Assembly: GCA_043805415.1 (NCBI GenBank)
Contig: JAZDHZ010000007.1
Coordinates: forward strand, 93,786-157,785
DNA length: 64,000 nucleotides
Direction of reading: 5' to 3'
DNA from: Candidatus Omnitrophota bacterium
GTDB lineage: Bacteria; Omnitrophota; Gorgyraeia; B26-G9
Both the position numbers and the translations under genes were made by a program. Positions 3,842 to 64,000 of the stretch are shown piece by piece (position 1 is the first letter of the stretch; every line of letters starts with the position of its first letter). Below the pieces are notes generated by a model. It was not told the DNA's origin and ran no database searches. It saw nothing but the letters and a program-made list of their open reading frames with translations.

Positions 3842-3865
3842 GGAACTTTGTATCCTTGCAACTAG

Positions 3866-3968
3866 CTTATTCCTCGGTCTAGAATCAATTATTTCTGCTC
3901 ATTCTCGCCTTACATCCTGTAAGGCTCCGAGGATAAATCTCTGATTTTGCCAGTCCTAACAAAATCAG
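3866..3968 (-). other. Structured intergenic element (three nested/adjacent stem-loops) between rSAM paralogs 4 and 3
   Basis: Outer imperfect stem ttattcctcgg(3867-3877)/ccgaggataa(3927-3936). Inner perfect hairpin gccttaca(3907-3914)-tcc-tgtaaggc(3918-3925). Adjacent hairpin ctgattttg(3941-3949)-10 nt-caaaatcag(3960-3968). Confidence 0.4.
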
Positions 3969-4084
3969 GCTTTAAACCCGCAAAATAATTATTCTAGCCC
4001 TTTTTACTTTATCCTTTTTACTTTTTACTTCCATCTGTGTTCATCGATATTTTTTATTAGTGTTTATCACAAAAGCTTCTGCTT

Positions 4085-22258: not shown

Positions 22259-22395
22259 CCCTTCCTCCTTTAAATGAGCGCTTGACTTACGGAGCATTTT
22301 TGCGGCGTCAAGTCAACCAGCTCGAATTTAGTCCGAAATGTCTGCGGCCTAGCAGGCACTTTCGGAATCATTATTAATTCTAAGCCATTAAACTA

Positions 22396-37539: not shown

Positions 37540-37899
37540 CTAATTTATATTTAATAATTTACCCAGATATTCATTAACCAACTGTTTATCCTGGTCGTCT
37601 TTCCACCAGGAAAAACTAACTCCGGTTCGATACATTCCAGCATCTTCGGTTATCCACTCCACCTTACCGAAAACCCGGATTGTACTAATATCCTTGCTCA
37701 GGCGCAAGTCAATGCTTAACGGCGTGCCAATCGGTATTCTTTCATTGGAAACCACTCCCGCGCCAACCATGCTGATATCGCGCATGGAATATTCTGCGCT
37801 GTTCCAAAACCTGAACCATACCTGAGGGTCAAGCGGGCGAAGACTTATTGAACTGTTCTTAGCTTCCTTGCGTGCGCTATTGCGTCTATCCTTATCCAT
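37540..37899 (-). CDS. Stand-alone PilZ domain protein immediately downstream of the giant ORF
   Basis: RxxxR (R-NSA-R) and DISMVGAG (DxSxxG). AAGGAG RBS ~9 nt upstream of the ATG at 37899. Paralog of 12626..13009. Confidence 0.75.
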   Translation of the reverse strand: MDKDRRNSARKEAKNSSISLRPLDPQVWFRFWNSAEYSMRDISMVGAGVVSNERIPIGTPLSIDLRLSKDISTIRVFGKVEWITEDAGMYRTGVSFSWWKDDQDKQLVNEYLGKLLNIN

Positions 37900-44000: not shown

Positions 44001-47000
44001 AATTCCAAATCCCAGGCCAAGAGAACTGGTAAGCGAGCTGGCCCAAAGCATTCCGTAACTTCCAACAACATAACCCATAAAAATATTATACAGCACTGTG
44101 ACAATCATTGTCTGGCGCCAAAAACGTTTGGCCTTTAATGTCTTTAAACCAGCTGGGCCTTTTTCCGTGCCTTTGGTCCAGAAACGGTCTTCTTGTCCAA
44201 AATTAAAATTAGGATTATATTCAGAATTAAATTTTTCTATTCTATCTTTATATTCAGAAGGTAATAATTTCAAAAATAAATTAAGATAATCCGGCTGAAA
44301 TACTGTTACAATAAACGCAATAATCACAATCACACTCACCAATAAAACACTTGGAAAGAATAACGAAAGCAATCCACCAATAATAATCGTCGCGACAGTT
44401 GACAAAGCTCCGATAGGGCTAGTAAATTTATTCAGCCAATTAGCAACTTTAGTATTTTTAGCAATAGTCTTATTCGCCAATGACACAAACGGAACCATGA
44501 GTTCCCCAAAGAAGGCGATCCAGCCAATTTTATACATTTTAAGATATGTTTCATTATCTTTCAGGGCTTTATTCACTGCTGGTTTAAGCTTTGTATCCAC
44601 CAAATTCTGTATAAGCTCAGACGCTTTTGCCTCAGCGTCTTTGGCTTCTTTTGGTGTTTCTTTTAGCGGCTTTTTGGGAAGCGCGCCTAGTTCTTTGCTC
44701 AGATCAATATCCAGTTCTTTGATCGGGTCCTCATAATAACGGAACAGATCATCCATATCCTCTTGCCCAAAAAGTATGGTTGGATCAGCCAGCAATCTGC
44801 CGGTTACAGTAACTTCTTTCCTTCTATATCGCTCCAGCTTGCTCTGAATCTGATCAATAATAACCCTTCTCCAGAAACCAGCATGCAAACGCATCAGACT
44901 GACAATCTCGCTTTGTTTATCAACCTTATAAAGCGCATATGATTTGCGCATCAGGTAGCGAATTAATGGTGTACGACCAGATAAAGAACTGCCTAATCCA
45001 TAAGGCTGGCGATAAGGCAGCATAAACACTCTTTCCCACAGCTTAAACCGCAAAAGATTCGGAGTTTTCTCACCTTCAAAAGCCTCACTTTTCATAGCAT
45101 TCGCTTTATCCAGACCGATTAATTCAGGTTCCTCTATCTCAAATTCCTGATCATAAGTACCGCCTTGGATTTGCCTTATTCCATAAGGATTTTTTATTAA
45201 AACAGATAAAATTTCAGCCAGGCGTTCTCTGACGATACGATCGTATTCAGCTGTAAATTCTCCACGTGTATCAATATCAGCAAAATATTTATTGAGGTAT
45301 GGACTAAAAGCCGCGTCTATGCATTCTTCAATAATATAATAATCAATTGCAGAAGGGATTCTCTCATTATTTTGCAGTTTTTGGATAAGATCGTTAATTA
45401 CAGCTTTAAATTGTTCAAGGGTTAATAATCCAAGTCCTTCTTTATCATCTAAAAGGTTTTTAACAATTGAAGCAATCGGCGGAGTAAACATCGCGTCAAA
45501 GGAATCTTTTGGTTCCGGCAGTTTATCAGACAAAACTTTATTAAGTTCTTCAATACCCTTATCCGCGGCTAAAACTATCTCCTTCAGCTCAGCTATTACC
45601 TGCAGTCTTGATTCGCCGGAACGGGGCGGGGCGCGCAAAAGATCGCCTGAGCCGAAAATTGTATTAAGTATTTTATAATCAATACCCTGCTCATTTAAGA
45701 ACTTCTTTGCCTGATCAAGAGTTGCAAATCCTTTTTTCTTAAGATCATTAGCCGGCAATTCCTGAGCAAATGCCGTTGCCGCTGATATTGCTATATCTTT
45801 GTCAACTCCGGCAGCAGTCAACATTTTCTCCAGCTCTTTTTCATTTGTTCTGTTCAGCTGCTGCAGCCTTAAATTCGCATCATCATAGAAATCAGGGATT
45901 ATATCAGCAACCACAATATTATCCAGTATACTTGCCTTGGTTTCCGGATCAACTTCTTTTTTATCAAGAAATTCACCCAGAGCAGCTTCATCCATAAAGC
46001 TTTTTTCTTTGCGTCTTTGGTATACTATTTGGCTTGCTATATATTTTGCATTGGTTTCTGCCTGCGATAAAAGTTCTTCTCTTTGAGCTTCACTCAATTT
46101 ATCATCTTGCGCGGACTGTTCTATTTTTTCCTTATCAAAGATGAGGTTTACAATCTCATCTTCGTTCATGAGATTGATATTGTTCTTGCCTTTTTTCTTT
46201 GCCTTGTCTGCCTTTTTCTTCCAGACCAAGCCAGTAATAACATTAGCACCTACTAAATAAACCGCTAAAACAATAGGAATCACCAACCATGGAAAATAAA
46301 AACTAGTAAATGGAAGTCTGACTTTATAACTAAATACCTGTACAAATTTAAACCCTAAACCTTTGGGGCCAATAGTTACTTCCCGCATTTGACTGTCTTT
46401 ATCAAGATATTTTATTTTTACTCCATCGCCCTGAAGATCATCTTTCTTTTTCTGCTCGTTTGCCTGAGCTAATAATTTCTCAAATAATTTTTCGTCTCTA
46501 AACTTCTCGCCTTCTAACTTAATATGAAACAGTTCCAGTCCGCGTTTGCCCATATTGGCAGTCTGACTGATAACATTATTCTGAAATTTATCAAAATATA
46601 GCCACCAAAGCTGACTATTGATCATCTTTTTGCCTTCAAAAGGCACTGCTTTATCAGAAAAATGCTCTTTTTGCGACAATCCCAAACTCTGATGCATGTT
46701 TGCCCCTTTAATCAGCGGGCTGCCATTGCTTAAAAGCAGTGCTTTCTGTCCGCTTAACGAGGACAACCAGGAGGACAACCAGGACGTGCTGGTTTCGCCA
46801 ACTGAATCGGTAAGCACAAATGTATATGCATTCTGGTCATGAATACTATGATGGATTTCATATGGATGCCAGTTTTTGAGCCCGGCATTAAGATTATCGA
46901 TAACTTCCTCAGGATTATGTGAAGTATCATCACGCAATGTTGCCACCAGGTTCTGGCGCTCATCAAAAACATCGATTCTCCATCTGGGATCTTCACCCAG

Positions 47001-50000
47001 CATTTTCTTGGATATCTGGAACTTGATTCTGCCATCAGGATAATACAATGTTCGTACTTGAGCCAGCTTATCTTTGCGCATATCTTCGATATCATAAACC
47101 ATAGTCGCGTCAGGACGTAAGAAAAGATTTTTTGAATTAGCCCGAGGTTTAAATTTAGCTTTAAAGTCTTTAACTATCTGTTCTGTTGATAAACCGCTTT
47201 GCATTAAAGCTGGATTAAAATCAAAGGTATTGCTGCCCTGTGATAATCCCATATTTTTCTCTTTAAGATACTCAAGAAAAGTTACATATGTTTTTTCAAG
47301 CTCCATCAGCTTAATTTTGTCCTCGGGTCCTGACTGATAAGTACGGTCAACATAACCGTTAAATATGATTTCAAGCTCGCCTTTATTATTCTTGATTTCC
47401 ATCCACATCTGAAGCACTTTCGGGATATCCGCTGCATTAGCATCCTTAGGAGCAACAGCAATTGTCGCTGTCCGTTCCCTCATGCCTTTATCAAGCAGTG
47501 TGATAAATGCTTTATCTTTAGCATTGGAAGGATCTAATTGAATCTTCATTTTTCCCTCAAGACCAGCAAAGAAAGCAACCACATCCGCATCATCTTTAAA
47601 CCCGCCTGTCTTATATTTCTCATCAATCATCTTATCAACAATATCTTCCGCAGTACCCTGTTCCGTGCTTGTTATATCAATTAATTCTTTTATTAGATTT
47701 GCTCTGGATGCCGGCAAACGGAACAATACCCACGAATCTTCAAACTTTCGCTCCATCTTATCGGCTTTTGATTCATTTATTCCTAAGGCAGCGTTTTTGT
47801 CTTCAGGAACAAGTGTCTTTATAACCGCATAATCAACAGCGCCTGTTTTTCTGGCAAGATTAATTGCTTTTGAATAGTTAAACAATGTCCAGCCTTGTTC
47901 AGTTAAAAAAGCTGTTGTAACATCAGCAATTCCAAATTTACCATAATCAGTATCAAATCTTGCCCGCAATTGCATTATGCCTTTAAAAACTTTTTTAGCA
48001 TCCCAATATCCCCAGATATGATTTATAACTCTTCCCAATCTATCCTTTGTTTTGCGATAATGCACATCTGCTTTTGAGAAAACCTTATCGCCATCTCTAG
48101 TGAATTCTGATTTCCAATACTCGATTCCTTCATATTGTATACTGCCTTGCTTATCAAGATACCTATCTATGGAGGTCAGATGGTCAGCATACAATGCCTC
48201 TTTTGCTTTAGCTTCATCACTGTATCGTTTAAGCCATTTAGCTTGCTCTTTTTCACTTAGCTTATCCCAGAATTCCTGCTTTTTCTTAGCTTTAAACAAA
48301 GTTTCTTTTGCCGCAGCTTCATCACCTTTAGACTCTTCAAGTAATTTGTTTCTGTCTTCAATACTAATCGTATCCCAAATTGCTTCTTTTTCAATCTCAA
48401 TAAGCATTGACCTGCTGACTTTTTCCTCAAATAATCCGCTGCACATACCAGCAAGCTGATCCTGAGTAAAAGCCTTAAGATTAAACTGATCTTTCTTTTT
48501 ACTAGCTGCTATTATATCTTCAGCTATATATGCCGGTGAGATAAACCTGAGGATTTCTTTTTGATCGCTGTAATCTGATTTCAGAATACCCAGAACAGCT
48601 TTATGGAAATTATCAGCAACAATAGCTTCGCCGCCAGCAGCAGTTATTGCCGCGTTAAAAGCAGCGAGTTTTTCACCACTTAAAGTTTCCCTGTATACAT
48701 TTAAAGCCGCCCTTGCTTTGTCAAAAGTTGTTTCACCTAAACTCTTAAGAATGTCCGCGTTAGAGCGGAAGAAGAAAGACTCTCCTCTATTGGCAATACC
48801 AGCCGCATCCAGATCATCATCTTCAAAATAAGAAAATGACATTATATTTCTTTTGAAAGATTCGTACCTTAACGCCTTTTCCGACGTCAATAAACCATCA
48901 AATAAGATAATAATTCTGCCTTTATTATCTTTTACTTCCTGATAATCAAGGTTTCTCTTTCGTTGGTGCATATGGTAAATAACATTTCCTCTTTTATCTA
49001 TAAATTCCAAGTCTGATTTAGGCACATTTGACCCGGAATTAAACGGCGCGATCTGTGATTCTGTGATTAATGATTCTCCCTGATCAAATTCATGATTGAT
49101 ATTATAAGCAAAGTATTCTAAAAGCACATCAGTCACGGCAATTGTCAGCGCCTTCTTATCAGCTTTCAAGTTTGAAAGCTTCTCAAGTCCCGCGATTATT
49201 TTTTTGGCGTGATATTTCCCCTGTGTATAGTTTTCTAATTTAGCTTCAATCAGCTTAGCATCAGTTCCGCTGTTAATTATAATATCCACGATTTCAGGAG
49301 CAAGCTGATTAAAATCAATTTCTTGTTTTTTGTTTTCCTTGTTATCAAAATAAAAATATGATTGAGAATTAAAAGCAAGACCTAAAGCTCCTAGATTCTC
49401 CTTGTATTCATCAGGCCAGTCATAATTTAATTTAGAAACCCAAACCCAAATAAAATTACCATTAAATTCATATCCTGAATATTTAACCCGGATATTGCCC
49501 TTATTATCCTTTAAACCTTGCCATAACAGTTTACTCTTAGCATCATAGATTAAGGCCTTTACATATCCAGCATCATTAAGGTAATCAGTTTCTTTAAAAA
49601 CCTGCATGATAATATTTCTAAAATCATTATCTTTTAAACCTTTAAGCTTAAGCTTATTTAACTCTTCCGCAATGCTCTGAGCAGTAATAAACGCGTTTTC
49701 ATTGATTAATTTTTCTGTTGCCCGGATAATTGATTCATGTAAAGTTTTAAGTGTTTCAGCGTCAACAGTTAGTTTTAGTTTTTCTAATATTGGACTTAGC
49801 TGCTGCATCTTTAAATTAAGCAAACTACTAACTTTAAACTCATCTAAATTTTTATATTCATTGGTATCAAATTTCTGTAATATTGATAATGCCAGTAATT
49901 TATTTTCGCCTTGTTCCAATAAATTCATATCAGGATTAATCCCATAGTCATAATTCTTATCATATAAATACGTGCTGCCCAAAGTAGCTATATCAAATTT

Positions 50001-53000
50001 CCCCAAACGCTGCATCGCGCTTCTGATTTCAATACGCATCAGTTCTGGGTCTGTAATCCCCAGAGTTTTCCAGGCTTTGGCCATCTTTCCGGCAATAAAA
50101 TCAAATAGTCTAGGGTCATCATCATAATAGAATCTGGTTGATTTTTGCGGCACAAATATTCCATCTATTTTTTTACCGTCAATAGAAACAAGTACGCGGC
50201 CATGAGCATCTTTCACTTCTTGCCAAACAAGCAGAGTTCTCTTATTATCCAGCTCAACAATCATCTCGCCTCTATTGTTGAAATAATCGCTCAACTGTGT
50301 TCCCGCTTTGCCTTTATGCGGCTTCAGTACAGAAACTGAAACCGGCATGGCTGGTTCTTCTTTTGTGGTTTTATCAAGCAAATAAGTTTCACCGGACATG
50401 GCAAACCCAACCCGGCCCAGATCATTCATAACCTTTTCATTTACGCCTAATTCACCGAACTTATCCTGCTGATAAACATAATGGTATTTTGTTACTTTTA
50501 TCGGATAGTATTTATTGTCTTTGCCCTTCTCATAATCATATACTTTAATCGGACGCCCAAAATTATCTTTTATTTCTTCCCAGGTAAGCTGCTGTTTAAG
50601 ACGGACATTCTGTATCGAGATATTTCCCTCTTTACTGAAATAGTCTTCCACTTTAATAAGTTTGCTTGCCTTAACAATCTCGGTAAGCTCCGCTTGTGTG
50701 ATTTTAACTTGATATTTAGTCCCTAATAATTCTGTTAATGCTTTAACCGCTTCAAGAAATTTCTGCTCATCAGATTGTTCCAAAGCAGATACTTTATTTT
50801 GAATATCCCTTAATAACTCTTTATTCTCGGGAGCTAACTTTAATCCCGCGATAATCTTGCCGGCTAGTGTTTCCATGGTATTTAATGTTGAAAAAGCAAG
50901 TACTTCTGTATCCTCTTTAGTATCTTGATCATAAAGAAAAGTAAAACCATACAAAGCAATATTCCGGCGGCCAAGCTCATCCATTATTTCCTGGGATTTA
51001 CCTTCTTGAAGCTTGGGCAGCTTCTTTTCCCAAGCATCAAGAGCTGCTTTAAGTTCAGGATGCGCCTTGCGATAGTTATTAAAGCTTTCATAATCATAAA
51101 AATAATATGTTTTCTGATTCCTGAAAAATTCGCCGTTTTTCACAACTCCATCAAATTTAACCTGTATTTTTCCTGTGCTGTCTATCTGTTCCTCCCAATG
51201 GAGATTATTTAAAACATTTTTCATTTCCACAAGCACTTCGCCGTTATTATCGATATAAACATCGCGCGTCTTTTCCCGGCCCTGGACATCTCGGTAAGTT
51301 TCCTTCCTGTGTTTTTTAATCCGGGAAACCGACATCAGCGCGGTTTGCTCGTTCTTCTCCTGGTCATAAATATAGGTAGCGCCAATAAGCCCTACTCCAA
51401 ATTTTCCGTAGCGGTTCAGGTCGCTGACGAAACTATCATTAAACATATCCTGTCCGGATTTTATATATTCATCAACAACCGCTTTAATATCCGCGTCTTT
51501 GCCTGCTTTTTTCCGATAAGTTTCCAGGGTTTTCTTAAATTTGTCGCTCAGGATATCCCAGCCTAATTTTTCATATTCAATAATCAGCTGCCTGTAAAGT
51601 TCCGGGTTTTCTTTGCTAAATTGCTGAATTTGCTGCAAGCTGTAGAAAAAGCGTGAGGCCTGCGCCTTTTCAAAAACTTTTGTCTGCACATCAAGTTTGC
51701 CCAGGTACCGGATTATTGTTCTTCCCAGATTATCAATAAGGTCCTGACGGGTCATCCGCTGGTTAGCATTGGTCATCTGAACAAGTATGTTCCCCTGGTC
51801 ATCAACATAACTCTCTTTAATTTTTTCCGTATGATCTTTCTCATCAATATAAGCCTTTTTAAATTTCACCAGGAATGAATGTCCGACTAATCCGCCGGTT
51901 TTACCGGTTTTAGCATCGTAAGTATGGGTTTCTCCAATCATCGAAACACCATAAAGCCCGAGAATATCCATGTCCAGAGCAAAACGCGCTTCAATCCCGT
52001 ACTTTTCAGCAAGGTCTTTCTCATATTTGTAGTGGAATGTCGTTACTTTTTCAGGAATAACTCTTCCGGTTTGTTTATTGAATTTTCCGCTGTATTTAAT
52101 TTTTACGCGGCCATTACCGTCAATCACCTGCTCGCTGATTTCTTTCTTTTGCGCGTCTTTATTTAAGACCTGAACATTGCCGTCTTTGGTTAAATATTTG
52201 CCGTTCGCGTCTGCTTTTACCACTGAACCAGCGACCAAATCAAAAGGCACCGCTGCTTTTTCATCAAAGCTGAAAGTCGCGCCAATAAGCGCGATGTCAA
52301 TTTTCCCCTGACGATTTAACTCTGCCAGCAATTTCTCATCTTCTATATTGATATTTAAAGTGCTTAGTTCATCCTTAAGCTTTTTATAAGCATCCGGGAA
52401 TCTCTTCTTAAATTGATTCAACTGGTTAACACTATAAAAAGAGTGGGAAACTTTTTCCCGCACAAACTGCTTTGTCTGAGCGTCAATATGCCCGTAATAA
52501 TCTACTGTCTTTCTTCCCAGATTGTCGACTAATTGCTGCCATACCAGCTTTTGCTTAGGAGCATACATCTGCAGCAATACATTACCTTCATTGTCAAAAT
52601 AACGTCCGTCTTTAAACGGCTGGGCAACAGACCTTCCCACTGGTTCATCACTTACTCTTATTCCCCGGCCATTTTCAAACTTATACAAATAAGTTTCACC
52701 GACCATGGCTACACCCTGCAATCCCAAAGTGTCCATTGTATCGGGATCAACACCAAAAGCATCAAACTGCTTCCGCAGTTCCCTGGACTTGGCATCTTCT
52801 CCGCCGGGATATTCATAGTAAAAGGTGGTTTCTTTTTCCACGTTAAAACTCATACCTGTTTGTGAATCGCGGGCATCAATCTCAAAGGGCTTGTTTTGTC
52901 CATAGGGGATTACCTGCAGCCGGTTTTCTTTACCAGTAGCTTCTCCCATGCTCCCATCATACTTTTTAATCAAGCGGCCGTATTGGTCACGCACTTCCAG

Positions 53001-56000
53001 AAAACGTTTATTTCTTTCGTGGTCAATAACCAGTTTTGTTGACCATTTGGAATGTTTATCCCAGTAAACCGTATTTCCTTTATCTTTATCCGCAAGCGGC
53101 AGCACCTTTGAACTAAGCACAGGCTTATCTTTATCCCAGCGCGGTTTTTCCAATGTGCCGGTATTTACATAGGTTTTACTTTCCTGCTCTCTGCCCCATT
53201 GGTCAAATTTAATTCTGGTAACATATTTTTCATTAAAAGTCATTACCGGCAGCTCATAATCTTTATATACTTCATAAGTTACCGCTTTAGAATCCGGATC
53301 AATAACTTTTTTAATAAGTATCGGGCTCTTTATCTTTACAACTTTTCCTTTGTTTTCTTTGCTAACTCCTGCCGGATCCTCAAGGTTTTCATCATAAGAA
53401 ACTGTTTCAGTTCTTTTCAGTTCTTTTCCTAATTCAGCATCCTTTCTCACTTCACCGGAGTTGTTAATATATACCTTGCTTTCAGACTCAAGATCATACT
53501 CATTGTATTGCATTACAACAATTTTATCTTTTGTGATTACTCGCTCAAGTAAGCCGCGTTTAAAAACCCGCATTTCCCAGTCATTAGTTCTTCCGTTTTC
53601 TTCTTCGCGTATGTATTCCCGATGGAAAGGAAATTTTAAAGTAACTGTAATATCGCGTTTTTCTCCGTTAATTTCAACTGCCTGGGAGCTTTCTTTGGGA
53701 ATATGAAATACCCAGCGGTCGCGCATAATCTTCTGCATTTGGGCAGCGTCGATCTCATCATTAGCCACCATTTGTTTTATTCTATCCAGGTAATCTCCCA
53801 ACGGGTCATAGTATTGCTTTAAACTTAATTTATCTTTTTCTATTGTCAGAGAACCAACTGATTTAAAAAAATCAAAGCAAACAGCGCTTATTTGCTGATC
53901 AGTTAAGAAACCTATTGCCAACTCCTGTTTTTGAGCAATTAATTTTTTAGCCAATAGCTGCGGATCAATAGTTTTTTCTTTCATCGCCTTAGAGACTTCG
54001 ATAAAAGCGCTTATAATTTTTGATACATTCGCGTTTGGCACTGTTTCTGATTTTACACCGGTTATTCTGGCAATGCTCTTGCGAATAGCTTCTCTCTTGC
54101 CGGAGGCTATTTCTAAAAGCCTTCCAGATTTTAAATCAGTAATAATCGCTCCGCCTTCATCTAAAGTTTTGTATTGCTCCGCGGCGTTCGCCTGCTCATT
54201 TTCTCTTTTTTCTCTTGAAACTTCTATTGCCTTAGCCGGGGCGATTAAAGTAACTGTAATTAGAGAATTGTCCTTAGCATTAAGATATTGATATACACCC
54301 TTGAATATATCCACGCTGATAAGCTTATCCGGCCCATATCCAGCAGCCTGCTGTTTTAAGCTAATAACCTGTTCTTTAGCTTGCGCGAGCTTAAGCTGTT
54401 CATCAGAACTCAGCTTTCCTGCTTTGCTTTTAAGTTCAAGCCCTATGATTTCCTGGTTTAATTCTTTAACCTGGTCTTCTAAATATTTCTTTTCAGAAAG
54501 AAAACTAAGCTTTACCCACCCTTTGTAATAAGGATGCGCTGCTTTTTTATCTTCCAGTTCTTTCTTTTCGCTGTCGCTTAGTTCTTCCCCGCGGGATTTT
54601 TTCTTTAAAAGCACAATAATTCTATCCAGGGTTTTTTCATCCGCGCTTGATGCTGTGAATGTCGTACCTTTAGTGTACTGGATGATCATTTCATTGATCT
54701 GCTGTTTTGCTGAACTTAAATTTTTCTCATCTTCTTTTGTCCAGGCAGCGGGATCAATCTTTTTCCTGGACTGGAGTAAATCAATTTTTAGCTTCTGATC
54801 AATAATCGAACTGTCAAACCCTTTTCCGCTGCTGATTCCCAAAGGAACCACGGGAATGCTTTCCGCCCTGCGGATATCAAAAGGATTAACATCGCTCATT
54901 GCCAATAAAATCCATAAAGAGTTCATACTGGCCAGGGAAACTGTATGAAAATTGCTATCCTTATATCTCTGGATCTGACCGTTTACCGCGTCCTTAGGCA
55001 AGGTGCTGTCCGGGAAAAATACCCCTAATTCAGTCCGAACCTCTAAAGGCTGGAGATTTAAGAGCAGGGTTTCTGATTTTTTCCTCTGCTCCTGGGCAAG
55101 TCCTTCCTGAAACATAGCTGTATAGAAATTTGCCATTATCTTGTGCGCTTTAGCTACATGCGCGGTCATTTCCGGGGATACTACTTCCAAGCGGCCGCCG
55201 AGGCCGGGTTTATCTGTATAGCCATAACCGGAAACCTCAACAACTTTACCCTTGTTATAATGCTTTGCTTTTATTACCTTGCGCTTTTCAAGAGAGCTCA
55301 TTATTTTTTCCGCGGAGTCTTGGCCAAAAACATAAGCATTGTCTTTATTACGTAAATTATTCAGGATTTCCGGCCCCAGCACAATAACCGCCAGAGCATT
55401 GACATCTGTCGCGTAAATATCGTCTTTTTCCCAACGCGGCTTATCCTTATCAGTTGAAGTATTCCGCATACCGCGGGAGAAAAATCCCTCTTCTTTGTTG
55501 TACACACTCGGCAGCCAGTTTAATATTTTTTCCGCCGCGTCTTTATAATCATCATTACCGGTTAAATCATAAAGCATCATGAACACGCCGAACGCGTTTA
55601 TGTTTTCTTCTGTTGATTTGCTGTCAAGCTGCGTAGGCCCTTGGCGAATGCCGCCGTCTTCATCCTGTAATTTAATCAGGAACGCGCCAAGCTTTTCCGC
55701 TAATTTCAAAGCATCTTTTCCTTTATTATCCAGTGATTCGCGGAATTCAGAAACTCCTGAAGAAGAAAACCATCCCGAATCTCCTCTTCCTTTAAATATT
55801 TGGTCTGCTTTTCCTTCTCTGCGGAAATCAGCAAGCGCTTTTGTCACCTTTTCTTTTTGGCGATCAAGTACTGCCTGCCATTTTCCCGCGGGAGCATGAC
55901 GCATTAAGTTTTTAATCAGCATCGCGGCTAGCCAGTTACTGCTGCCGGCATTATAACGGAATTCCGCGATCGGTTTTTTTGCTTCTGTAAGCAGCTGAGA

Positions 56001-59000
56001 CGGGTCAATCGCGTTGCAGACTGCTCCGTTAAAACCATCTTTTTCTCCCTCGCGGAACAACCAGGCGTTATTGAGAAAATAATCCATCCATTTATCAGCG
56101 TGGTCGTTTAAGCCGGCTCCAGACAATACCATGGATCTAAGCGCCAGATCATAAGTAAATGCCATGTTAACACTATTAGTGTCCACAGCTGAATCATATA
56201 AATGGCTGATCGGGATCCCAGTCAAAGGATGTTTAAAATTCAATGTCCCGGAAAGCATGTCCCCAGGTAATTTCTGCGCCCAGATTAACGGAGCAACCGA
56301 TTGGTTTTGCTGCTGATACCTTGAAAGCATTGATTCAAGCACAATCCCGCCGTCATAACCTTTTTTAACAATCCGGCCGCCGCCCTTATCCATTAACATC
56401 ATATACTGGTCAAAAAGGCGTACGTCTACTTCAAGTTTTTGCAGCTTGCTCTTGTAGCCTTCGTCTCCTAAAAATACAATGCCTCCGGTTTTCGCGTTTA
56501 GATAATACACGCGCCGTACTGGCTGTTCATTGTCTCCTTCGGATACTACCTCTCCGATTGGAAGTAATTTCAGTTGTTCAAATTCAGTTTGGGTGTATGT
56601 TGTTACCTTATCCATCCACCATTTTTTACTAAACGGATTCGCGCTGCTTTCCATCTCAAAGGCAAATGAACCGGATGATTTAATAAACGCTTGGGTATTT
56701 TTAAGATCAAACCAGGTCATTACCGGCAATCCGAGAAAAGAAATTCCAAAAGCGCGTCTGCGCGGAATTTCCGGCGCATAGTCAGATACCTTGGGTATTT
56801 TTAGTATTCTCAGCAGGGCTTTCGCGTCAAAAGTAATCCCGACAAAGTTAGCATAGTTTGTCAAGGTATTTCCCCAGCCTTCACGAAACGCCATCATATT
56901 CACTCCGGCGCCAAGCGCGTCGTTTCCGGTAATCGCGCCGATTACTGCCATTACATTTACTTCTCCGGTTAAACTAAAATAGCGGCTGGCTAAAATATTC
57001 CGAAAAGCATTTCCTTTTTGATTAAAAGATTCATGATTCAAACGCGCCAGGTTATCCAGGATTCCTAAGCTGAACACGGTAATGGCATAATTCCTTTGCC
57101 CCTGGACATAAGCAACAAAGCTTTTACTGGCTTCATCATCCATAGCCATGGTAAGCCAAAGATTAAGGTCGGATTTTTTATTAGCTTTTTGCTCTTCAAC
57201 ATACTTGCGGAATTGCTCGTCGGTTATAGTTAGGTTTCCGCCTGAGTCTTCCCGAGTAACTTTATCCAGTCCTTTTTCAGTTCTATTCTTTCCCGGCCCT
57301 TTGGAGAAAAACAGATAACTGGAAATAAAAGTTTCCACGGTATTCTTGCTTGGCGGACCCATCATTTTCGCGCCGCTCGGCATTTCCCAGGCAGTAAAAA
57401 GCATATCATATATTAAACGCATGCCTGCTTGCGCGAAAGGTTTGGACAGCGTCGCAATAATGTTGCCGCCGATACCCAATCCGCCCAGGACATTAAGCGG
57501 CAGCATTGCCGTTTCAAATATCATACTGCGTTTTAGTTTCTTAACGGTTTTGTGGGCGTCTCTGACCGCGATCTTGTGCATTAAAGTGCCGATAGAGACA
57601 TTAAGGATTTCTTTATTTATCGCGTTTTTGCCAAACTTGATCACATCACTTTGCGACCAGTCGCCTTTTGCTTCTTTTTCCGGATTGGTTTCCAGAACAA
57701 TTACATCATGGTCAGATCTGGCATTGACTTCCACCAGCTTTGCCTGGCGGTTATAGCTGAGAAAACGCATTCTTCTCTGCTGAAGCTGACCTTGCTCATC
57801 CTTATAAAAATAATAAACATTATCAAAGCCTTTGCTCTTTTGTGCCTGCTGCCATACTTCTAAAAGTTTTTGTTTTTTTTCAGGAGTCAATTTAGATTGT
57901 TCTAATATTTTTTGAAAGTTGGATTCAAATTCAAGAAAACGCGACTCTTTATGTTTTTGCTTTTTGAAGAACTCTGTCCAAGAAGTATCATCACCAAATA
58001 TTTGCGTTATAGCTGCCTTGAGAATAGAGCCATCATTTAGTTCTAACAACGATAATTCCTTGATTAGCTCCTCTTGACCTTTATACTTTTCTCTTATCTG
58101 ATTATTATATGTTTTTATGTAATTCTGATTCAGGTTGTCACTTTGAATATAATCTTTAACCTTAACCGAACTGCCTTCTTCCTGCTCGAAAATTGCCGCG
58201 ATATACGGACTTTGCTTCATCAGCGGATTTTTGGGAACATTGCCGGCAGCATTAAACACTCTGGCTTTTGTACCAAAGGGTTCTACCCCGGATTCATTCA
58301 GCATGTCAATTTTGTTTTTCTGCGCTTCAATATCCAGGTTGCCTAAGATATTACCCACAACTTCAACATCCAATGCCCTTGATAATCCATAGCTTTTTAC
58401 TCCGGCAAGTAATTTATCTGAGGCAAATTTGCCGTAATTCAAACGATAGGCATACTTACCGCCGGCATCCTCGCCTTCAATCCAGATATCCGGATAATTT
58501 CCTGTCTCCTGATACTCCGCGATTTCTTTCGGACGGGTTAATCTTTCTCCGCGTCCGAACTGATCTCTTTCTTCAAACTGTTTTGGGAATTTATAAAAAC
58601 GCAGCAAATGCTGGACATTACTGATATCCACCACAGAATCAAAAACAAGTTCTTTGCCTTGGCTAACCGGAATGTATGGCTGGGCTCCTTTTGCGCCTTT
58701 TTTGCCAATCCATATTTCAATGTTTTTAACATTAGAAATAGTATTATTATCCACATCCTGTTTGATTAATTCATAAAGAGTGCCTTTTTCATCATTGGAA
58801 GGAATTTCTTTATTTGTTCCTTTAACATAAAAATAAATGTTTTTCTGCTCTTTTAATTCTCCCTGCAATATAGGATTTTCCGCGATCGCGAAACGTCCTA
58901 CTTTTTCTACATTAATCAAAAGTTGGACGATTGCCTTGGCAAGGCCGCGTTCGTAATTGCGCTCCGGAGTTAAAGCAGTGGGAGAATATATTTTTCCAGG

Positions 59001-62000
59001 AGTTACTTTATCCATCAGCTCTTGGATTCGACTCGCGAACTTATCATCTGATTTAGCGGATATCACAGGAACAGCCGCTGGAGCTGCTCTTAAATTTTTT
59101 TGCTTTGGCGGTAATGGAGGAGGGCCTATTTTTTTACCGCTGTCTATGCCAGGATTCTCGCGTGCCTGCGGCGTCATTAACGCGGCAACATCTTTGTCAA
59201 TATTTAGTGTTAATTCCTTACCGATTACTATCAGCGATCCTTTGATCTTTGAATCTGGATGCTGATTATTATAAATTTCCCGCAATTTTATCCAAAGACT
59301 GGCACTGCCGAATAATTTCTGGGCCAAGCCTCTAAGTGTATCACCCTTTTCAACCACATGTTTCCACTGTTTTTGCTGGAACTCACCAGACTTGGCTTCA
59401 GGAGTAGAAACAGCTAATTGCTTTGCTTCAGGAGTTGATGTATCTAAAGAAACAACTAATTGCTTTGCTTCGGGAGTCAGTAACGCCGCGATTTCTTCAT
59501 TAATGGTTAAAATAAGGCTTTTTCCTAAAATAATCGTTGTGTCTTTGATGGGATTTTCCGGATGCTGCCGGTTGTAAATTTCTTTAAACTTTATCCGAAG
59601 ATCTTGATTGCCGAAAAATTTTTGGGCAATTTTAGAAAGAGTATCGCCTAACTTTACCTCGTGAATTATTCTCTTGCCAACTATGCCATTTACTTGTACA
59701 TTTAACTCTGCGGACTTTGTTCTTTCTTGGTTTTCTCCCTCTACTCCCCCGGCATCAGTCACTACTACTTCTTTTTTAGATATTTTTGCTTTAGCAAAAG
59801 GCCCCACAGGTGCTTGCTTATCGCTTTTTATCGTGGTTGGAGCGGTTTTGGCCAGGGCCTGAGCACGCTTCTCTTCGCTGTAATTAGCGAGCTGATGAAG
59901 ATTCGCGCCAAAAACTTTTTCCGGGTCATTAGCTTCAATGTTAAGAAAGTCCTGATAATTTTGTTCCTGATTTTTATGATTAATCTTTTTATCTGATTCG
60001 CGCATTTCAAAATGCAGATGGTCATTTATCAGATCCGCGGCATTGCCAGTCTTTCCTACCCTGGCAATCGGCGTATTCCAATTAACTTTATCCCCGATCT
60101 TTACCAGATTTTCACTATTATGCGCGGCTGTCGCATAAAAATACGTCTTACCGCCTTTGCTATTACTTACTTCGTGCCTGACAATAACCAGATTCCCATA
60201 ACCCGTACCTTCTCCGGCAAAAATAACCTCACCAGGCGCTACCGCATAGGCAATCTGGTGACTTTCTTCCCCTGTCTTGCCTGCTATCTGCGGCATATTA
60301 AAGTCAAACCCCTTGTGCTCGCGCGCACCCTTTCCTCTGGGAGCTCCGAACCCGGATACCGGGGTGGTTGTATATTTGCATTTTATCGGCAAACGGAACT
60401 GCTGCAGGAACTGCTCTAAAGGCGTGGCACTGACAATTCCCGCTAATATGTCTATTTCCGGAGTTTTGATATTAAGAGGCTGCTGCTGAGTATTGATTGA
60501 AGCCAACATAAGATCAGGCTTCATTGCCTGAGCAGCTAGGTCAGTATAATGCGCTTTGATTGCTTCCGGCAGGTTTTCTTCAAGTTTTACATTAGCAGTA
60601 TTATACGGCTTTTGCGCGTTTTGGCTATCTGATGCTGCTGCTAAAGTCGGCACAGAAGCAAGCATACTTGCTCCCATAAACGGCATAATCGAAACCTGTA
60701 AAGCTTTGGTAAGTTTTTCCGGATTTGTGGCAATACCCAATAATCTATTTAATCCCACCTTAGCCAGATTAAGCTCAACCAATAAAGCAGTGACTGCTTT
60801 TCTAAAAGCAGGACGCTGCTGAGCAGTTAAAGCCTCAGCAGGAATCTTGGCAACCATATGCTTTATTTCAGCGCTGGAGAAAAAACTGCCGTCATTGGGG
60901 CTGGAATTCTGTACCGCGGTAAGAAAAGTCCGCAGCATTTTGTCTTTTTCCGCCATGCCGTTCAGCAGATTATAAGCTAAATCAGTGGGATTGTGGGAAC
61001 TTGCTACCTCTTGTTTAAACTGATTAATAACTATACCGATATTATCGGAAAAGTCACTAAGTCCCACATTATTCAGCTGAGACTGTATCCCGGAAAAGTT
61101 TTTTAGTTTATGTTTAGCCAAAGACGAATAGTCTGTAGGGGTTTTTGAAATTTTTGATATAAACCGCTTGGAAATAAAAGTAAAACCGCCGGCCAAAGCA
61201 ATAAGCGGCAGCAGAGCAATTAACTTTGCCCCTAATATCGGAACTCCTACGGTAATCAGCGGAGCAATCCATCCGCCGACAAATAATAAGGCTAATCCCA
61301 TAATCGAACCAGTAGTAATCATAACCATTCGGGATTGAAGCGCGGAAGCGCGAGCCATTGACATAAGCGTAAATATTGTTTGCTTAGATTTTTTTGCTTT
61401 GCCGTCAAATCCAACTTCCTGCCTAGCAATTTTCCGCGCGGTAGAATATTGCGCTTTAAAAAACATTATCCCTTGTAAAGAAAATAAGCCGGTAACTAAA
61501 AGTCCAACCGCCTGAAGCAGGCTGCTGCCCTGCATCACTCCGGTACTCATAGCAATTCTAATTGAATCAAATACCTGAACTCCCAGAAGCGGAACAATGC
61601 CTAAAACAATCGCCGCGCTGGCAGCGATTCCGGCAACAAATCCCAGCAAAGGAACCCAGCCTTTAACCGCGATATTATCACTGCTGCGGGCAAATATTTT
61701 TCTGGCGATCAGCATACTCACCGCGATCGCGGACATGCCGGCAATAACCGGCAAACTAAAACTTCCGCTGGCAACAAAACCAAAAGCATACAGACCTAAA
61801 GTAACTAAAGAACCAAAAATTCCACCTTGGAAAAATCTTTTCGCGCTAGTCATCGGCAGCATGGGAGCGGATTTTAAATCTTTACGGCTGGTAAACAGCA
61901 AGAGAGTTGATGAGATTACCCCGACAACCCCCAATACTGCTGATGCCAGCAATACTGTACTTCCAATACTCCCGGTAATAAGCGTTGCTGAACCAATATA

Positions 62001-64000
62001 GGAAAAAAGCGTCATTGCCGCGACAAAAGGAGCAAAAGAAGCAGTTGTGGTAAGTGTTTTTCGCCAAGCAGTTAATCCTACTGTTTTTCCAATATCTTTT
62101 AAAGACTGCCGATGACCAATAGCAATCGCATCAGCCATTTTAGTGATCGTAGAATCAACTTGCGATAATCTTTTTACTTGGGAATTAAGCGCCCAGCCAA
62201 TCATTACTGCCCCGATAGTCACCGCCACCAAAACAACCGGGCCTAAACCAAGAAACAAACTAACCGCGCTGCCAATAACCGGCAAACCAACCGCGCTGCC
62301 GACACCGCCGATACTTAGAGCTTTAAATACCACCCCGATTAAAACAGCAAGCGCGATATTTGCCGAGATCGCGACTGAAGCAGGAATTATCTTTACAGCT
62401 AATAATTTCACGCGTTCTGAAAAAGGAATTCGATTAATTTTCGCGGCTTCTGCTTGAGCTTGATTCATCTCTCCATCTGTCGGAGCTTGCTGAGCAAGCT
62501 GAAAAGCAAGCCCAATAACATTTTTACCCAGATCATTTGCTGTATCTTGTTTCGTCTGTTCAAAAGCAGCCGCTGTTATCCGCTTGATTTCCGCGTAAAT
62601 CATCTGCGGCCTTATAAACTGTTTCTGATATCCGGAACGTGAAGATATTTTCTCTAATCTATGTTTTTTCCATTCAGATTCACTTAAAAACCGCATCCAT
62701 TTCTGATCAACAATTTCTAAAGCGCGGTTTTTAAGAATATCTTCTATAATCGCGAACAAAGCTTTTTCCAGATTGTAATCAGCAGCTTCCAAAGCGCTAT
62801 TTATTGTTTGGGCTTCTATATTACTTAATCCAAAGTCATTGTTTAAAATTTCATTTATGATTAATTCATATTGAATTTCCTGTCCAAGATCAACTCTATC
62901 ACTAATCGCCTGAGCGATTTTTTCCTTGATTGATTCAATAACATTTCGCGGGATGCCCAGCGCCGTTAAATCCCCAGTAACTATGTTTCTTCTAAACATT
63001 ACATGCTCTCTGGCAAATCCTTGACCTTTGCCCGCGCCGCTGGCCTCTTGCCACAAGAACTCACCAAAAGATTTTTGTTCTTTCTCCATGTTCTGTTTAC
63101 TATCATTAATACTTTTTCGAATTGCCGAAACAACCTTCTGGCTCTGATTAGCTGACTTAGGATCATTAGTCATGATAAACGTATGCGGCTTACCAACACT
63201 AACCTTGCTGGTTAAATAAGCTAATTTCTCGGAAATAAGCTCTTTATAATTTAAAAAATCTTCCGGCGACCAGAACCCAAAAAAGAAACCTTCTCTGCCA
63301 TCTCGTCCGCTGCGGCCTCTTAACTGAATATCTGTTTCTTCAGAGGCATCGGCACTTAATGACATAACCACCATTTTATCGCCTTTAAAATCAACTCCGC
63401 GTCCGGATATATTAGTGGATACAATAATTACTTTACTATTTTTAGAAAGCTCTTCGACCTTGTCTTTTAACATTTTTGTATCTGAAGTGGCTTCATGATT
63501 TTTAGAAACAAATTCAATAATAACATTGTCCACAGCATTATCCGCGATCAGCGAATCCAAATCATCCAAAGTCACATTTTCAATTTCATTGCCTTTTGCA
63601 TCAGTAATCTTTCCCTCCTGAGTAATCCGCGCGATATTCCGCCGCGCCATGGCCGGTTTAGCCAAAAGTTTATCCGTAAAACTTGCTACCTGATTTTCAT
63701 CATCACAGCGGACAAGTACAGCTCCGGCTTGTTCAGGAAGTCCCCAATCAGACATTTTCCTTGTCGCGCTTTGATCTGTCTTTAGAACAACTATCGCGTC
63801 AATCGCGTTTCCGATTGACTCTTCTTGATCAGAACTCAGAATAATCTGTTCTTTTCTTTTTGAAACCTTATCTAATCCGCTAAGATCTTTAAACTCTAAT
63901 CCATAATTATCAGCTGTCTTCTGTCCAATGGTAGCAGAAGCAGCGCTAATTCCGGAAACAAGCCCCAAATTATCACTCAAAATTACCGGCAAAATCATCG
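38025..64000 (-). CDS. Giant multi-domain membrane protein, 5'-partial (at least 8,657 codons in the window; N-terminus lies beyond the window end)
   Basis: A single open frame from the window edge to TAA (plus 38025-38027). The frame is open at 63998-64000 and the first recognisable domain is only the second half of a SecA-type motor, so the listed Met (MILPV) is not the true start. Domains are listed as separate sub-features. Confidence 0.85.
   Translation of the reverse strand, partial: [8657 protein letters not shown]
40880..42050 (-). other. Giant ORF: hydrophobic block following the GT48-like core
   Basis: [146 protein letters not shown]. The arrangement (TM block / GT core / TM block) mirrors Fks1 topology. 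Confidence 0.55.
42050..43640 (-). other. Giant ORF domain: divergent GT48 (Fks1 / callose synthase, 1,3-beta-glucan synthase)-like cytoplasmic core
   Basis: Collinear motif matches to yeast Fks1 as I recall it. P6795[12 protein letters not shown] vs [35 protein letters not shown] vs [33 protein letters not shown] vs RKFKFLVSM. KGDPKGQ...R7153[28 protein letters not shown] vs [47 protein letters not shown] vs LHYGHPDF. VS-E7255[20 protein letters not shown] vs [23 protein letters not shown]. The Fks1 QCGKGRD motif is not conserved (KLQWRMP). Confidence 0.6.
43895..44535 (-). other. Giant ORF: hydrophobic block preceding the GT48-like core
   Basis: [101 protein letters not shown]. Confidence 0.55.
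46900..53650 (-). other. Giant ORF: ~2,200-aa region of degenerate YD/RHS-like repeat modules
   Basis: A recurrent module: Y.D..GN.LV.M......L.W(Q/E)(E/Q)(L/I/V).D..GR.I..Y.G......F......F.Y ... G..(A/M).(G/S)(E/A)TY(L/I)(Y/F)D. Examples: [113 protein letters not shown]. Confidence 0.5.
54875..56175 (-). other. Giant ORF domain: alpha/alpha-toroid-like (glycoside-hydrolase- or prenyltransferase-repeat-like) domain, paralogous to 16279..~17350
   Basis: [12 protein letters not shown]..., [12 protein letters not shown] (QW-motif-like), [49 protein letters not shown]. It is collinear with the C-terminal domain of the 650-aa PilZ protein. Confidence 0.55.
59199..59663 (-). other. Giant ORF domains: two LysM-like peptidoglycan-binding repeats joined by a TPEAKQL micro-repeat linker
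   Basis: LysM1 (59502-59663): [19 protein letters not shown]...[26 protein letters not shown]. LysM2 (59199-59366): [19 protein letters not shown]...[26 protein letters not shown]. Linker: [29 protein letters not shown]. Confidence 0.7.
59990..60370 (-). other. Giant ORF domain: M23 (LytM-type) metallopeptidase
   Basis: HxxxD motif H-KGF-D (His at aa 1228, nt 60315-60317). '[10 protein letters not shown]' core. HxH motif DHLHFEM (nt ~60003-60023). Confidence 0.8.
61150..62420 (-). other. Giant ORF: first hydrophobic block (roughly a dozen predicted TM segments, not formally computed)
   Basis: aa ~527-950 are dominated by long G/A/V/L/I runs, e.g. [78 protein letters not shown]. Confidence 0.6.
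63204..63998 (-). other. Giant ORF domain: divergent SecA-type motor, NBD2/helicase-C-like half
   Basis: aa 195-204 [10 protein letters not shown] vs the SecA motif [10 protein letters not shown]. aa 225-237 [13 protein letters not shown] vs SecA [13 protein letters not shown]. The following [10 protein letters not shown] matches SecA SRFYLSLED. Confidence 0.7.

Follow-up and report, generated by a model that had tools for sequence, protein, structure and literature searches.

Apparent ancient paralogs of a predicted (alpha/alpha)6 barrel in a giant protein and a PilZ-domain protein of Candidatus Omnitrophota

Alg44 consists of a PilZ domain, a transmembrane helix, and a periplasmic domain. 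We take it to link PilZ in the cytoplasm, through the inner membrane, with the handling of polysaccharide in the periplasm, as would the PilZ-barrel protein described here. BcsA (GT2 plus PilZ) also ties cytoplasmic PilZ to periplasmic polysaccharide handling, and with BcsZ (GH8), a periplasmic (alpha/alpha)6 hydrolase, a glycanase accompanies the processive synthase, as appears to be the case here. Unlike in Alg44 and BcsA, however, PilZ in the present locus is fused directly to a glycanase-like barrel and not to a synthase or co-polymerase, and the synthase-like partner is FKS1-like rather than GT2 BcsA or Alg8. In LapD, which has a degenerate EAL domain and HAMP and sequesters a protease, a cytoplasmic c-di-GMP receptor governs a periplasmic output via a membrane-spanning helical unit (PMC3032553). 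The PilZ-barrel protein would follow the same logic by an inferred mechanism, with a PilZ receptor, a single transmembrane helix and coiled coil as transmitter, and a glycosidase-like barrel as output. The cyclic beta-1,2-glucan synthase Cgs (8WY1) also has a glycosyltransferase and, for cyclisation, an (alpha/alpha)6 domain, but it differs in glycosyltransferase family and domain order and has no detectable sequence similarity.

We analyzed a stretch of 64,000 nt (the window) from a Candidatus Omnitrophota bacterium (GCA_043805415.1, contig JAZDHZ010000007.1, positions 93,786-157,785, forward strand), in which an ORF of 650 codons and a giant ORF of 8657 codons, located on the same strand, each contain one copy of the barrel. 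We consider it fairly probable that the two copies are ancient paralogs acting as extracytoplasmic glycan-processing modules, one of which is gated by c-di-GMP.

Homologous barrels in a PilZ protein and a giant protein

The true start of the small ORF was the ATG at position 18225, matching the database protein P0001 (648 aa, 100% identical over the C-terminal 373-residue query) and giving a protein of 648 residues. Its N-terminal PilZ domain (17860..18225, minus strand; residues 1-122) was identified by Pfam PF07238 (E=1.3e-7; 32.4 bits against a cut-off of 22.5, residues 6-122) and carried the c-di-GMP motifs RxxxR (R6-K-Y-V-R10) and DxSxxG (D39-V-S-F-S-G44). Among 66 family members, RxxxR and the D/N position were each conserved in 64 and the final G in all 66, while the third position of (D/N)xSxxG was S in 45 and G in 17. 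The profile of the family alignment (A1) also matched the PilZ protein YpfA (5vx6). On the basis of these motifs, the PilZ domain is predicted to be a c-di-GMP receptor.

Topology was called by a crude hydropathy scan, which found only one hydrophobic helix in this protein (17785..17859, minus strand; residues ~123-147; Kyte-Doolittle peak 2.42), with a basic N-terminal flank (QKRIIRFAK). It is followed by a predicted coiled-coil stalk of ~125 residues rich in K, L, Q, and E (17401..17778, minus strand; residues ~150-275), and a PDB profile search with family-alignment positions 137-289 returned only coiled-coil proteins, among them SMC, NEMO, and designed coiled coils. The PilZ-type barrel occupies the C-terminal 373 residues (16279..17400, minus strand, including the stop codon). 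These results bear out the order of PilZ, transmembrane helix, coiled coil, and barrel proposed in the initial annotation of the window, and the layout supports its suggestion that a cytoplasmic c-di-GMP sensor is attached to a putatively extracytoplasmic barrel.

We confirmed 431 PilZ-barrel loci by tblastn in species-representative genomes, and the loci (at least 431) were almost all labelled Omnitrophota. In 77 of 78 loci, a single ORF (median length 658 codons) encoded both PilZ and the barrel. Most members had no database name or were called "hypothetical"; a few were listed as "PilZ domain-containing protein", and three carried coiled-coil-driven names (FtsB, TolA-binding protein). The architecture is present in hundreds of species and has never been studied before, and what is new here is the PilZ-barrel family itself together with its homology to the giant-type barrel.

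The giant ORF (38025..63998, minus strand; 8657 codons in the window) remained open up to the window edge, which probably cuts off its N-terminus. It encodes, all on the minus strand, a SecA-like Helicase_C domain (residues 176-234), a transmembrane cluster (residues 540-935), Peptidase_M23 (residues 1227-1340), LysM (residue ~1446), and three transmembrane helices (residues 5895, 6546, and 6656) preceding a glycosyltransferase module that has transmembrane helices of its own (residues 7137-7693). Residues 1446-3620 were collinear with other giants (P0122-P0124). The hydropathy scan detected no hydrophobic helix in residues 936-5894, the stretch that holds M23 and LysM, and in relatives fused to FKS1-like modules an N-terminal signal anchor lies directly ahead of the barrel. 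The giant-type barrel probably lies outside the cytoplasm and would be one module of a ~5000-residue ectodomain that also holds the M23 peptidase and LysM.

BLASTP of the 650-codon against the 8657-codon ORF aligned small-protein residues 395-611 with giant residues 2765-3001 (29% identity over 241 residues, E=6e-15), and a second collinear segment joined residues 298-346 to 2593-2645. The C-terminal domain of the small protein was represented by an HMM of 120 homologs, which matched the giant ORF with 107.5 bits (E=5e-33), the sole match among 130 six-frame ORFs of the window. Comparison of the two sub-family alignments by hhalign gave a probability of 100% (E=5.7e-40, 358 aligned columns), spanning small-domain positions 8-373 and giant residues ~2580-3040. 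In addition, phmmer with the giant segment in an exhaustive search of 1.84 billion proteins recovered PilZ-family representatives (E=1e-16 to 1e-8).

The motif-by-motif alignment put forward in the initial annotation is thus well founded, and every motif it listed was found in both copies: FTYD.AL, G..NA.D, LQ..DGG...GP, STE.N, ATD..AL...GPE, and S.E(W/M)TA, as well as a C-terminal hydrophobic/aromatic helix ending in NPF. Giant residues conserved with the PilZ type included D2617 (FTYD), E2797/N2799 (STEEN), R2842, D2865 (ATD), R2936, and E2943 (SPEMT), and the giant copy has an insertion of ~110 residues between helices 4 and 5. The separation of the copies by 37 kb was also correct; the giant segment had been roughly placed, but its actual extent is ~54879..56261 (minus strand), reaching ~29 residues further N-terminal than the previously given boundary at 56175.

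Fusion partners, genomic context, and proposed function

In Omnitrophota, the giant-type barrel was found repeatedly in the same polypeptide as an FKS1-like glucan-synthase module. This glucan-synthase family is regarded as essentially eukaryotic. The FKS1-like (GT48-like) module of the giant ORF (41370..42590, minus strand; residues ~7137-7543) matched residues 2452-2820 of P0127 (BLASTP, E=1e-27), and P0127 and P0130 scored 87-92 bits on Pfam Glucan_synthase. A profile of six aligned sequences including the giant matched FKS1 (7xe4) with E=1e-26, better than BcsA (E=5e-16). Scanned alone, the giant module failed Pfam Glucan_synthase and matched only Glyco_trans_2_3 (21.6 bits); it retains the D of FDAN and YVSED, while GKGRE is replaced by QWRMP.

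Two GH158-like TIM-barrel glycosidases are encoded near the PilZ-barrel gene. The first (20150..21439, minus strand; 429 aa, lipoprotein-like signal peptide; Pfam GH2_C, GH72, Glyco_hydro_cc) belongs to a conserved operon upstream of that gene, and the second (23063..24955, minus strand; 630 aa, signal peptide) was recognized by Pfam and a PDB match. Both had GH158 9oro as best PDB match (E=3e-9 and E=5e-13, respectively), and GH158 is an endo-beta-1,3-glucanase family (PMC7157763). Of 84 loci, 20 had both GH158-like genes alongside the PilZ-type gene, 20 had small u229/u208 paralog ORFs, and 24 had at least one of the GH158-like or u229/u208 genes, whereas ~60 of the 84 PilZ-barrel genes had unrelated, housekeeping-like surroundings without GH158-like genes. 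Since all other operon proteins bear a signal peptide, the PilZ domain would be the operon's only cytoplasmic sensor. Directly downstream of the giant ORF, a stand-alone PilZ protein of 119 aa is encoded (37540..37899, minus strand; Pfam PilZ E=8.9e-10, 39.3 bits), in keeping with the "small pilZ homologs" that an earlier study (bioRxiv 10.1101/2023.11.21.568195) placed downstream of giant genes.

We propose that the PilZ-type barrel serves as the output domain in an inner-membrane protein of 648 residues, in which cytoplasmic PilZ would bind c-di-GMP while the transmembrane helix and the ~125-residue stalk hold the barrel in the periplasm. Binding may change how the coiled coil oligomerizes or shift its register and thereby switch the activity or substrate access of a periplasmic glycan hydrolase or transglycosylase, and the overall logic would be inside-out signalling. 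The substrate might be a glucan, possibly beta-1,3-glucan, a tentative guess prompted by the fusion to FKS1-like modules and by the GH158-like genes in the operon. A bolder version, which we consider quite unlikely, holds that PilZ-barrel proteins are a new class of c-di-GMP effectors, in which the second messenger directly gates a periplasmic glycan hydrolase or transglycosylase via the single transmembrane helix and coiled coil, and that they act in trans with giant-embedded FKS1-type (GT48-like) glucan synthases; if true, this would give bacteria an equivalent, controlled by c-di-GMP, of the fungal "glucan synthase plus remodeler" pairing.

Predation has been proposed in print for giant genes and their flanks (10.1101/2023.11.21.568195; 10.64898/2026.06.07.730766), and both barrels could accordingly degrade prey cell-surface glycans, with c-di-GMP coupling them to an attached, predatory state. 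The giant would then attack the prey wall with its M23, LysM, and glycosidase domains, and the operon, with its GH158-like enzymes, PilZ-barrel protein, and sugar importers, would digest and import the released glycans. The M23 peptidase and LysM in the same ectodomain as the barrel are in line with this proposal, as are the sugar importers adjoining the operon, with MFS_2 in both the window and locus L001 and an ABC binding-protein system in L004, and a GH94 phosphorylase downstream in L004. However, the PilZ-type barrel is anchored to the inner membrane of its own cell and prey would therefore be out of its reach, the glucan-synthase-like module fused to the giant-type barrel suggests that the polymer is made by the cell itself, and most PilZ-barrel genes have no adjoining importers or glycosidases. 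We thus regard predation, in both its parts, as possible but rather unlikely.

Barrel fold and candidate active site

Both segments were modeled as (alpha/alpha)6 barrels, with AF2 pLDDT values of 94.3 (PilZ type) and 76 (giant type), although this agreement is partly by construction because the giant MSA was dominated by PilZ-type sequences. In the models, the fold is shared with GH15 and clan GH-L (dextran dextrinase 9JU0, bacterial glucoamylase and glucodextranase 1LF6 and 1ULV, isomaltose glucohydrolase 5Z3A, and MmpH 7QSJ), at sequence identities of just 9-15%. Unlike the GH-L enzymes, the barrels here are either attached to a PilZ/transmembrane/coiled-coil unit or set in a giant ectodomain.

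The invariant residues of the PilZ type stand at the N-termini of inner helices: D41, G95-P96, E151/N153, D207, E275-W-T, and T343-G-H-G-W347 (domain numbering). D41, E151, D207, and E275 were invariant across 67 PilZ-type sequences and were retained in the giant type. In the models, the N-terminal ends of the six inner helices carry the invariant polar residues, which form an active-site-like pocket. The invariant Asp at the start of helix 2 presumably has a counterpart in D55 of GA, which is also at the helix 2 start. Asp47/Asp50 of MmpH, a mycobacterial endomannosidase, are located there as well (PMC9883506). GH15 enzymes place the general acid in the alpha5-alpha6 loop and the base or nucleophile in the alpha11-alpha12 loop (PMC12446779). 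As judged by helix order in the model, E151 (giant E2797) appears to stand at the end of the alpha5-alpha6 loop, but neither paralog type has a conserved Glu in the alpha11-alpha12 loop, which reads VDTGHGW in the PilZ type (D342-T-G-H-G-W) and VNGQIQRYKDS in the giant type, where RYKDS is invariant and the model has a pLDDT <50.

Membership in GH15 was rejected for the missing alpha11-alpha12 Glu and the absence of a sequence-profile match: Glyco_hydro_15 (PF00723) gave none at E<=0.01 in the small or giant ORF, and the PDB profile search returned no GH15 chain at E<=10. A GH76-like fold had been assigned to a giant Omnitrophota protein via PDB 4C1S (West-Roberts et al. 2023), and GH76 was the sole family with detectable sequence similarity, confined to helices 4-7. 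Nevertheless, PF03663 scored only 24.9 and 21.8 bits on the giant segment (cut-off 25.9) and did not match the small window protein; the PDB profile match to the GH76-like protein 4mu9 had E=1.4e-3. In the profile alignment, the GH76 catalytic Asp-Asp (D136/D137 of 6SHD) falls on the family-invariant Gly95-Pro96, and we also rejected this assignment. As part of our preferred explanation, the barrels fairly probably represent an uncharacterised extracytoplasmic (alpha/alpha)6 family that is glycoside-hydrolase-like and closest in fold to the GH15 clan, being neither GH15 nor GH76.

The unrecovered catalytic pair, with Gly-Pro in place of the GH76 Asp-Asp, and the dissimilar GH15 base loops of the two paralogs would also be compatible with barrels that no longer catalyse a reaction and instead bind glycans or serve as scaffolds, comparable to the GH15-like domains in the alpha and beta subunits of phosphorylase kinase; in that case the PilZ protein would act not as an enzyme but as a tether or adaptor controlled by c-di-GMP. 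This explanation is very unlikely in both its parts, since the four acidic residues at the pocket mouth show a conservation typical of active enzymes and E151 appears to occupy the general-acid place of GH15 (PMC12446779).

Age of the paralogy and implications

The giant and PilZ copies were about 27-30% identical to each other. The giant copy shared 44-48% identity with the same domain in other giants (P0122-P0124) and 31-38% with the FKS-fused group (P0125-P0130), and orthologs of the PilZ copy shared 40-90% across the phylum. Each copy thus has much closer relatives of its own, so the two segments appear from sequence comparison to be ancient paralogs of one family, and the deep split between both types in a neighbour-joining tree indicates that the duplication is old. 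In a survey of co-occurrence, only one of 84 loci (L005) had a giant-like ORF at a distance of up to 10 kb from the match, and most PilZ-barrel genes have other genomic surroundings. Although both copies are on the same strand of one 64 kb window, it is extremely improbable that the domain was recently shuffled from the giant gene into the downstream operon to give the PilZ-fused copy, or in the opposite direction, and the direct link by shuffling drawn in the initial annotation is contradicted by the low mutual identity, the far closer domains of other giants and FKS-fused proteins, the tree, the genomic context, and the conservation of the PilZ architecture in at least 77 species. The two genes would instead share the window through a typical layout, because giant genes of the phylum typically precede pilZ, sugar-transporter, and glycosidase genes.

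These results correct the published "GH76-like" label, as the catalytic pair is absent and the modeled fold is nearer to GH15, and they reveal that the giant-type barrel travels with FKS1-like glucan-synthase modules. The giant proteins of Omnitrophota are almost wholly uncharacterised, and a 460-residue module of one of them now has a small, expressible paralog. Additionally, the PilZ-barrel family defines a widespread and overlooked architecture of predicted c-di-GMP receptors with at least 431 matching loci; if its extracytoplasmic, glycosidase-like output is true, it would provide a direct path from c-di-GMP to periplasmic glycan processing.

Homology of the two barrels

The stretch encodes two paralogous glycoside-hydrolase-type barrels with a conserved pocket, and in one of the two proteins a single transmembrane helix and a coiled coil separate the barrel from an intact PilZ domain. 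This small protein is encoded by a 650-codon ORF (16279..18231, minus strand), which showed 100% identity, over the C-terminal 373-residue query, to a 648-aa database protein recorded as 'MAG: PilZ domain-containing protein [Candidatus Omnitrophota bacterium]', with an ATG start at 18225. The PilZ domain was identified at residues 6-122, over the Pfam cut-off, and both c-di-GMP-binding motifs are present and conserved family-wide. Next comes the protein's only hydrophobic helix (residues ~123-147), which is flanked by basic residues on its N-terminal side, then a ~125-residue stretch enriched in K, L, Q, and E, and finally the barrel. A PDB profile search with the full-length family alignment was dominated by coiled-coil matches, the stretch after the helix resembling coiled-coil proteins only, and the search was rerun with a trimmed alignment. 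Because PilZ is cytoplasmic and one transmembrane helix lies between the two, the barrel is placed in the periplasm. The initial annotation had proposed a PilZ, transmembrane, coiled-coil, and barrel layout with a cytoplasmic sensor and an extracytoplasmic barrel, and the Pfam match, the one hydrophobic helix, and the coiled-coil matches support this layout as a prediction.

The second barrel lies in an 8657-codon ORF (38025..63998, minus strand). BLASTP aligned the two ORFs at 29% identity over 241 residues (E=6e-15), with an additional collinear N-terminal segment, and a 120-homolog HMM for the C-terminal domain of the small protein scored 107.5 bits (E=5e-33) against the giant ORF and matched no other ORF when all six frames of the window were translated. 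Aligning the profiles of the two sub-families gave a probability of 100% (E=5.7e-40) over 358 columns, from small-domain position 8 to 373 and across giant residues ~2580-3040, where the giant copy carries an additional insertion of ~110 residues between helices 4 and 5. These results confirm the paralogy noted in the initial annotation, and the motifs that it listed are all present in both copies; the domain starts ~29 residues ahead of the coordinates given there.

A word-indexed homolog search with the giant segment returned one fragment only (P0121), and its relatives were therefore taken from an exhaustive phmmer search of 1.84 billion representatives. The closest were other giants, P0122 (6278 aa), P0123 (5775 aa), and P0124 (6383 aa), which cover the entire domain at 44-48% identity and are collinear with giant residues 1446-3620. 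A second tier comprised P0125-P0130 (730-3131 aa, 31-38% identity), and the PilZ-type proteins ranked behind both groups (E=1e-16 or weaker). PilZ-type and giant-type clades were also separate in a neighbour-joining tree drawn without bootstrap support values. Taken together, the ranking, the collinearity, and the tree split indicate that the two barrels are ancient paralogs. The observation of the initial annotation is confirmed, but its link between the giant gene and the operon by domain shuffling is not supported, since the giant copy has closer relatives elsewhere and the tree split is deep; a recent-shuffle origin is essentially excluded by the phmmer ranking and this split. Additionally, a second, weaker barrel-like segment is apparent in P0124 (~5214-5301) and P0221 (~5615-5724), unlike the giant of the window, which has a single copy.

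Fold and putative active site

The AlphaFold2 model of the small domain (66 homologs in the alignment) had a pLDDT of 94.3, a pTM of 0.93, and twelve long helices. The giant domain model (pLDDT 76, pTM 0.84) shared its top two structural matches with the small domain, an agreement that is only partly independent because its alignment consisted mostly of PilZ-type sequences. Single-sequence PDB searches with both domains gave chance matches only. GH76 was the sole known family detectable by sequence, with a score under the Pfam cut-off. In the PDB search with the trimmed alignment, the catalytic Asp-Asp pair of GH76A fell on the family-invariant Gly95-Pro96 (small-domain numbering, as below), and GH76 membership was therefore rejected. 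For a giant protein of the Archaeovorin type, West-Roberts et al. (bioRxiv 10.1101/2023.11.21.568195) described an AF2 prediction with a GH76-like fold.

In GH15 (PMC12446779), the alpha5-alpha6 loop supplies the general acid, and the alpha11-alpha12 loop supplies the base or nucleophile. By helix order in the models, the invariant E151 (E2797 in giant numbering) would occupy the general-acid position. The alpha11-alpha12 loop, in contrast, has no conserved Glu and diverges between the paralogs (VDTGHGW in the PilZ type, VNGQIQRYKDS in the giant). MmpH uses Glu262 as its base, and Asp47 and Asp50, where helix B begins, are its candidate acids (PMC9883506); E275 and D41 might correspond to Glu262 and Asp47/Asp50, respectively. 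The mapping of the base by helix order is ambiguous, as MmpH Glu262 possibly points to E275 and the GH15 topology to the 316-356 loop. Invariant polar residues gather at the N-terminal ends of the six inner helices, with D41, E151, D207, and E275 common to both paralogs, and this clustering is the pattern of a functional pocket. One main alternative to a hydrolytic role is that the barrels bind glycans non-catalytically.

Synthase-like module and predicted topology of the giant ORF

The frame of the giant ORF is open to the window edge (63998-64000), and the ATG listed for it is no more than the first complete codon; a helicase C-terminal domain (residues 176-234) is the first domain that can be recognised. 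As SecA-DEAD-like domains have been reported in giant Omnitrophota proteins (10.1101/2023.11.21.568195), the true N-terminus with its SecA-DEAD-like part probably lies outside the window, and the residue numbers are window-relative.

Profile similarity points to an FKS1/GT48-like glucan-synthase module, flanked by transmembrane helices, at 41370-42590 on the minus strand (giant residues ~7137-7543). Residues 7137-7543 match P0127, P0130, P0122, P0145, and P0213, in all of which the giant-type barrel and the glycosyltransferase module recur in the same polypeptide. P0127 and P0130 matched Pfam Glucan_synthase at 87-92 bits, and a profile that included the giant matched yeast FKS1 structures (E=1e-26) better than BcsA (E=5e-16). 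The giant's own module is divergent, retaining the D and YVSED motif and having lost GKGRE. GT48 is generally regarded as eukaryotic. A hydropathy scan found several helices clustered within residues 540-935, none across residues 936-5894, which hold M23, LysM, and the barrel, and three helices after residue 5894, ahead of the glycosyltransferase module. This predicted pattern fits an outside ectodomain joined to a cytoplasmic synthase domain.

Distribution, gene neighbourhood, and proposed function

The small domain matched 227 database clusters at E<=1e-3, and most of the 120 listed were 640-653 aa. In species-representative genomes, 431 loci were confirmed by tblastn, nearly all labelled Omnitrophota; the scan patterns came from the PilZ type only, and these counts do not extend to the giant type. 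PilZ and barrel were carried by one ORF in 77 of 78 loci. Giant-like genes lay within 10 kb of only one of 84 PilZ-barrel loci (L005), the flanks being too short for linkage at 20 kb.

The genes of the window form a single long array on the minus strand. Upstream of the PilZ-type gene are genes for a TPR/PKD protein, two TIM-barrel glycosidases, two small paralogous proteins, and an MFS sugar transporter, a cluster conserved in two other loci (L001 and L004). The best solved relatives of both TIM-barrel glycosidases were GH158 enzymes, a family of endo-beta-1,3-glucanases (PMC7157763). Both GH158-like genes occurred in 20 of 84 loci and any GH158-like or small paralog gene in 24, and ~60 of the 84, including L002 and L003, had an unrelated housekeeping neighbourhood. 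Signal peptides were found on all operon proteins other than the PilZ-barrel protein. The small secreted proteins (229 aa, 21608-22297; 208 aa, 22396-23022; both minus strand) have homologs in 20/84 loci, accompany the GH158-like genes, and had no Pfam family match; they are mutual paralogs, because the same ORFs in other loci match both. The next gene downstream of the PilZ-barrel gene, separated from it by 38 bp, encodes a secreted 767-aa protein with no Pfam match (13937-16240, minus strand) and stays beside it in 10/84 loci; it is followed by a pilin-like N_methyl protein gene (13263-13937, minus strand) with a homolog at the same position in L001 only.

Farther along the array, four consecutive radical SAM / SPASM genes (722-5125, minus strand) lie downstream of genes for a 1351-aa ABC ATPase, an ABC-2 permease, an amine oxidase, and a GT4 (WecA-like) protein; the GT4-to-ABC ATPase order is retained in L001, a locus that stops short of the radical SAM genes. 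Proteins of 1422 aa (26830-31098) and 1191 aa (31140-34715), both on the minus strand, have a common N-terminal leader ending LDIAWAGGTEL, and similar leaders begin the giants P0122 (ALDMSWAAGG) and P0124 (TDIVWAAGGDL); possibly, the leader is a signal or sorting motif specific to very large Omnitrophota surface proteins. Between these genes and the giant gene, the region 35160-36856 (minus strand) contains an AbiEii-type nucleotidyltransferase toxin gene (299 aa) with two small ORFs (129 and 159 aa) upstream that had no Pfam match, and it may be a toxin-antitoxin insertion.

A stand-alone PilZ protein of 119 residues (37540-37899, minus strand; Pfam 39.3 bits) is encoded directly downstream of the giant ORF, in agreement with the 'small pilZ homologs' published as conserved at giant-gene loci. 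Conserved pilZ, sugar transporter, and glycosyl hydrolase genes have been described downstream of giant genes (West-Roberts et al., 10.1101/2023.11.21.568195), and GH2-type flanks were noted in a 2026 preprint (10.64898/2026.06.07.730766). Neither paper mentions a neighbourhood PilZ protein bearing a giant-homologous barrel, the PilZ/transmembrane/coiled-coil/barrel family, or the FKS-like module. The barrel homology and the PilZ-barrel family are thus an incremental but genuine addition to the known picture.

We propose that c-di-GMP binding would alter the coiled-coil dimer, and that this change could modify how active a periplasmic glycan hydrolase or transglycosylase is, or how far it reaches. 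The giant-type copy may trim or remodel the polymer from the fused FKS-like synthase, or attack foreign glycans; the other main alternative is that the barrels degrade prey glycans. A beta-glucan, possibly beta-1,3, is a tentative candidate for the substrate. The small protein joins two known kinds of part, an (alpha/alpha)6 glycosidase-like module and a PilZ effector, and it would gain in interest if c-di-GMP does control a periplasmic glycanase and if a bacterial FKS-type synthase is its partner.
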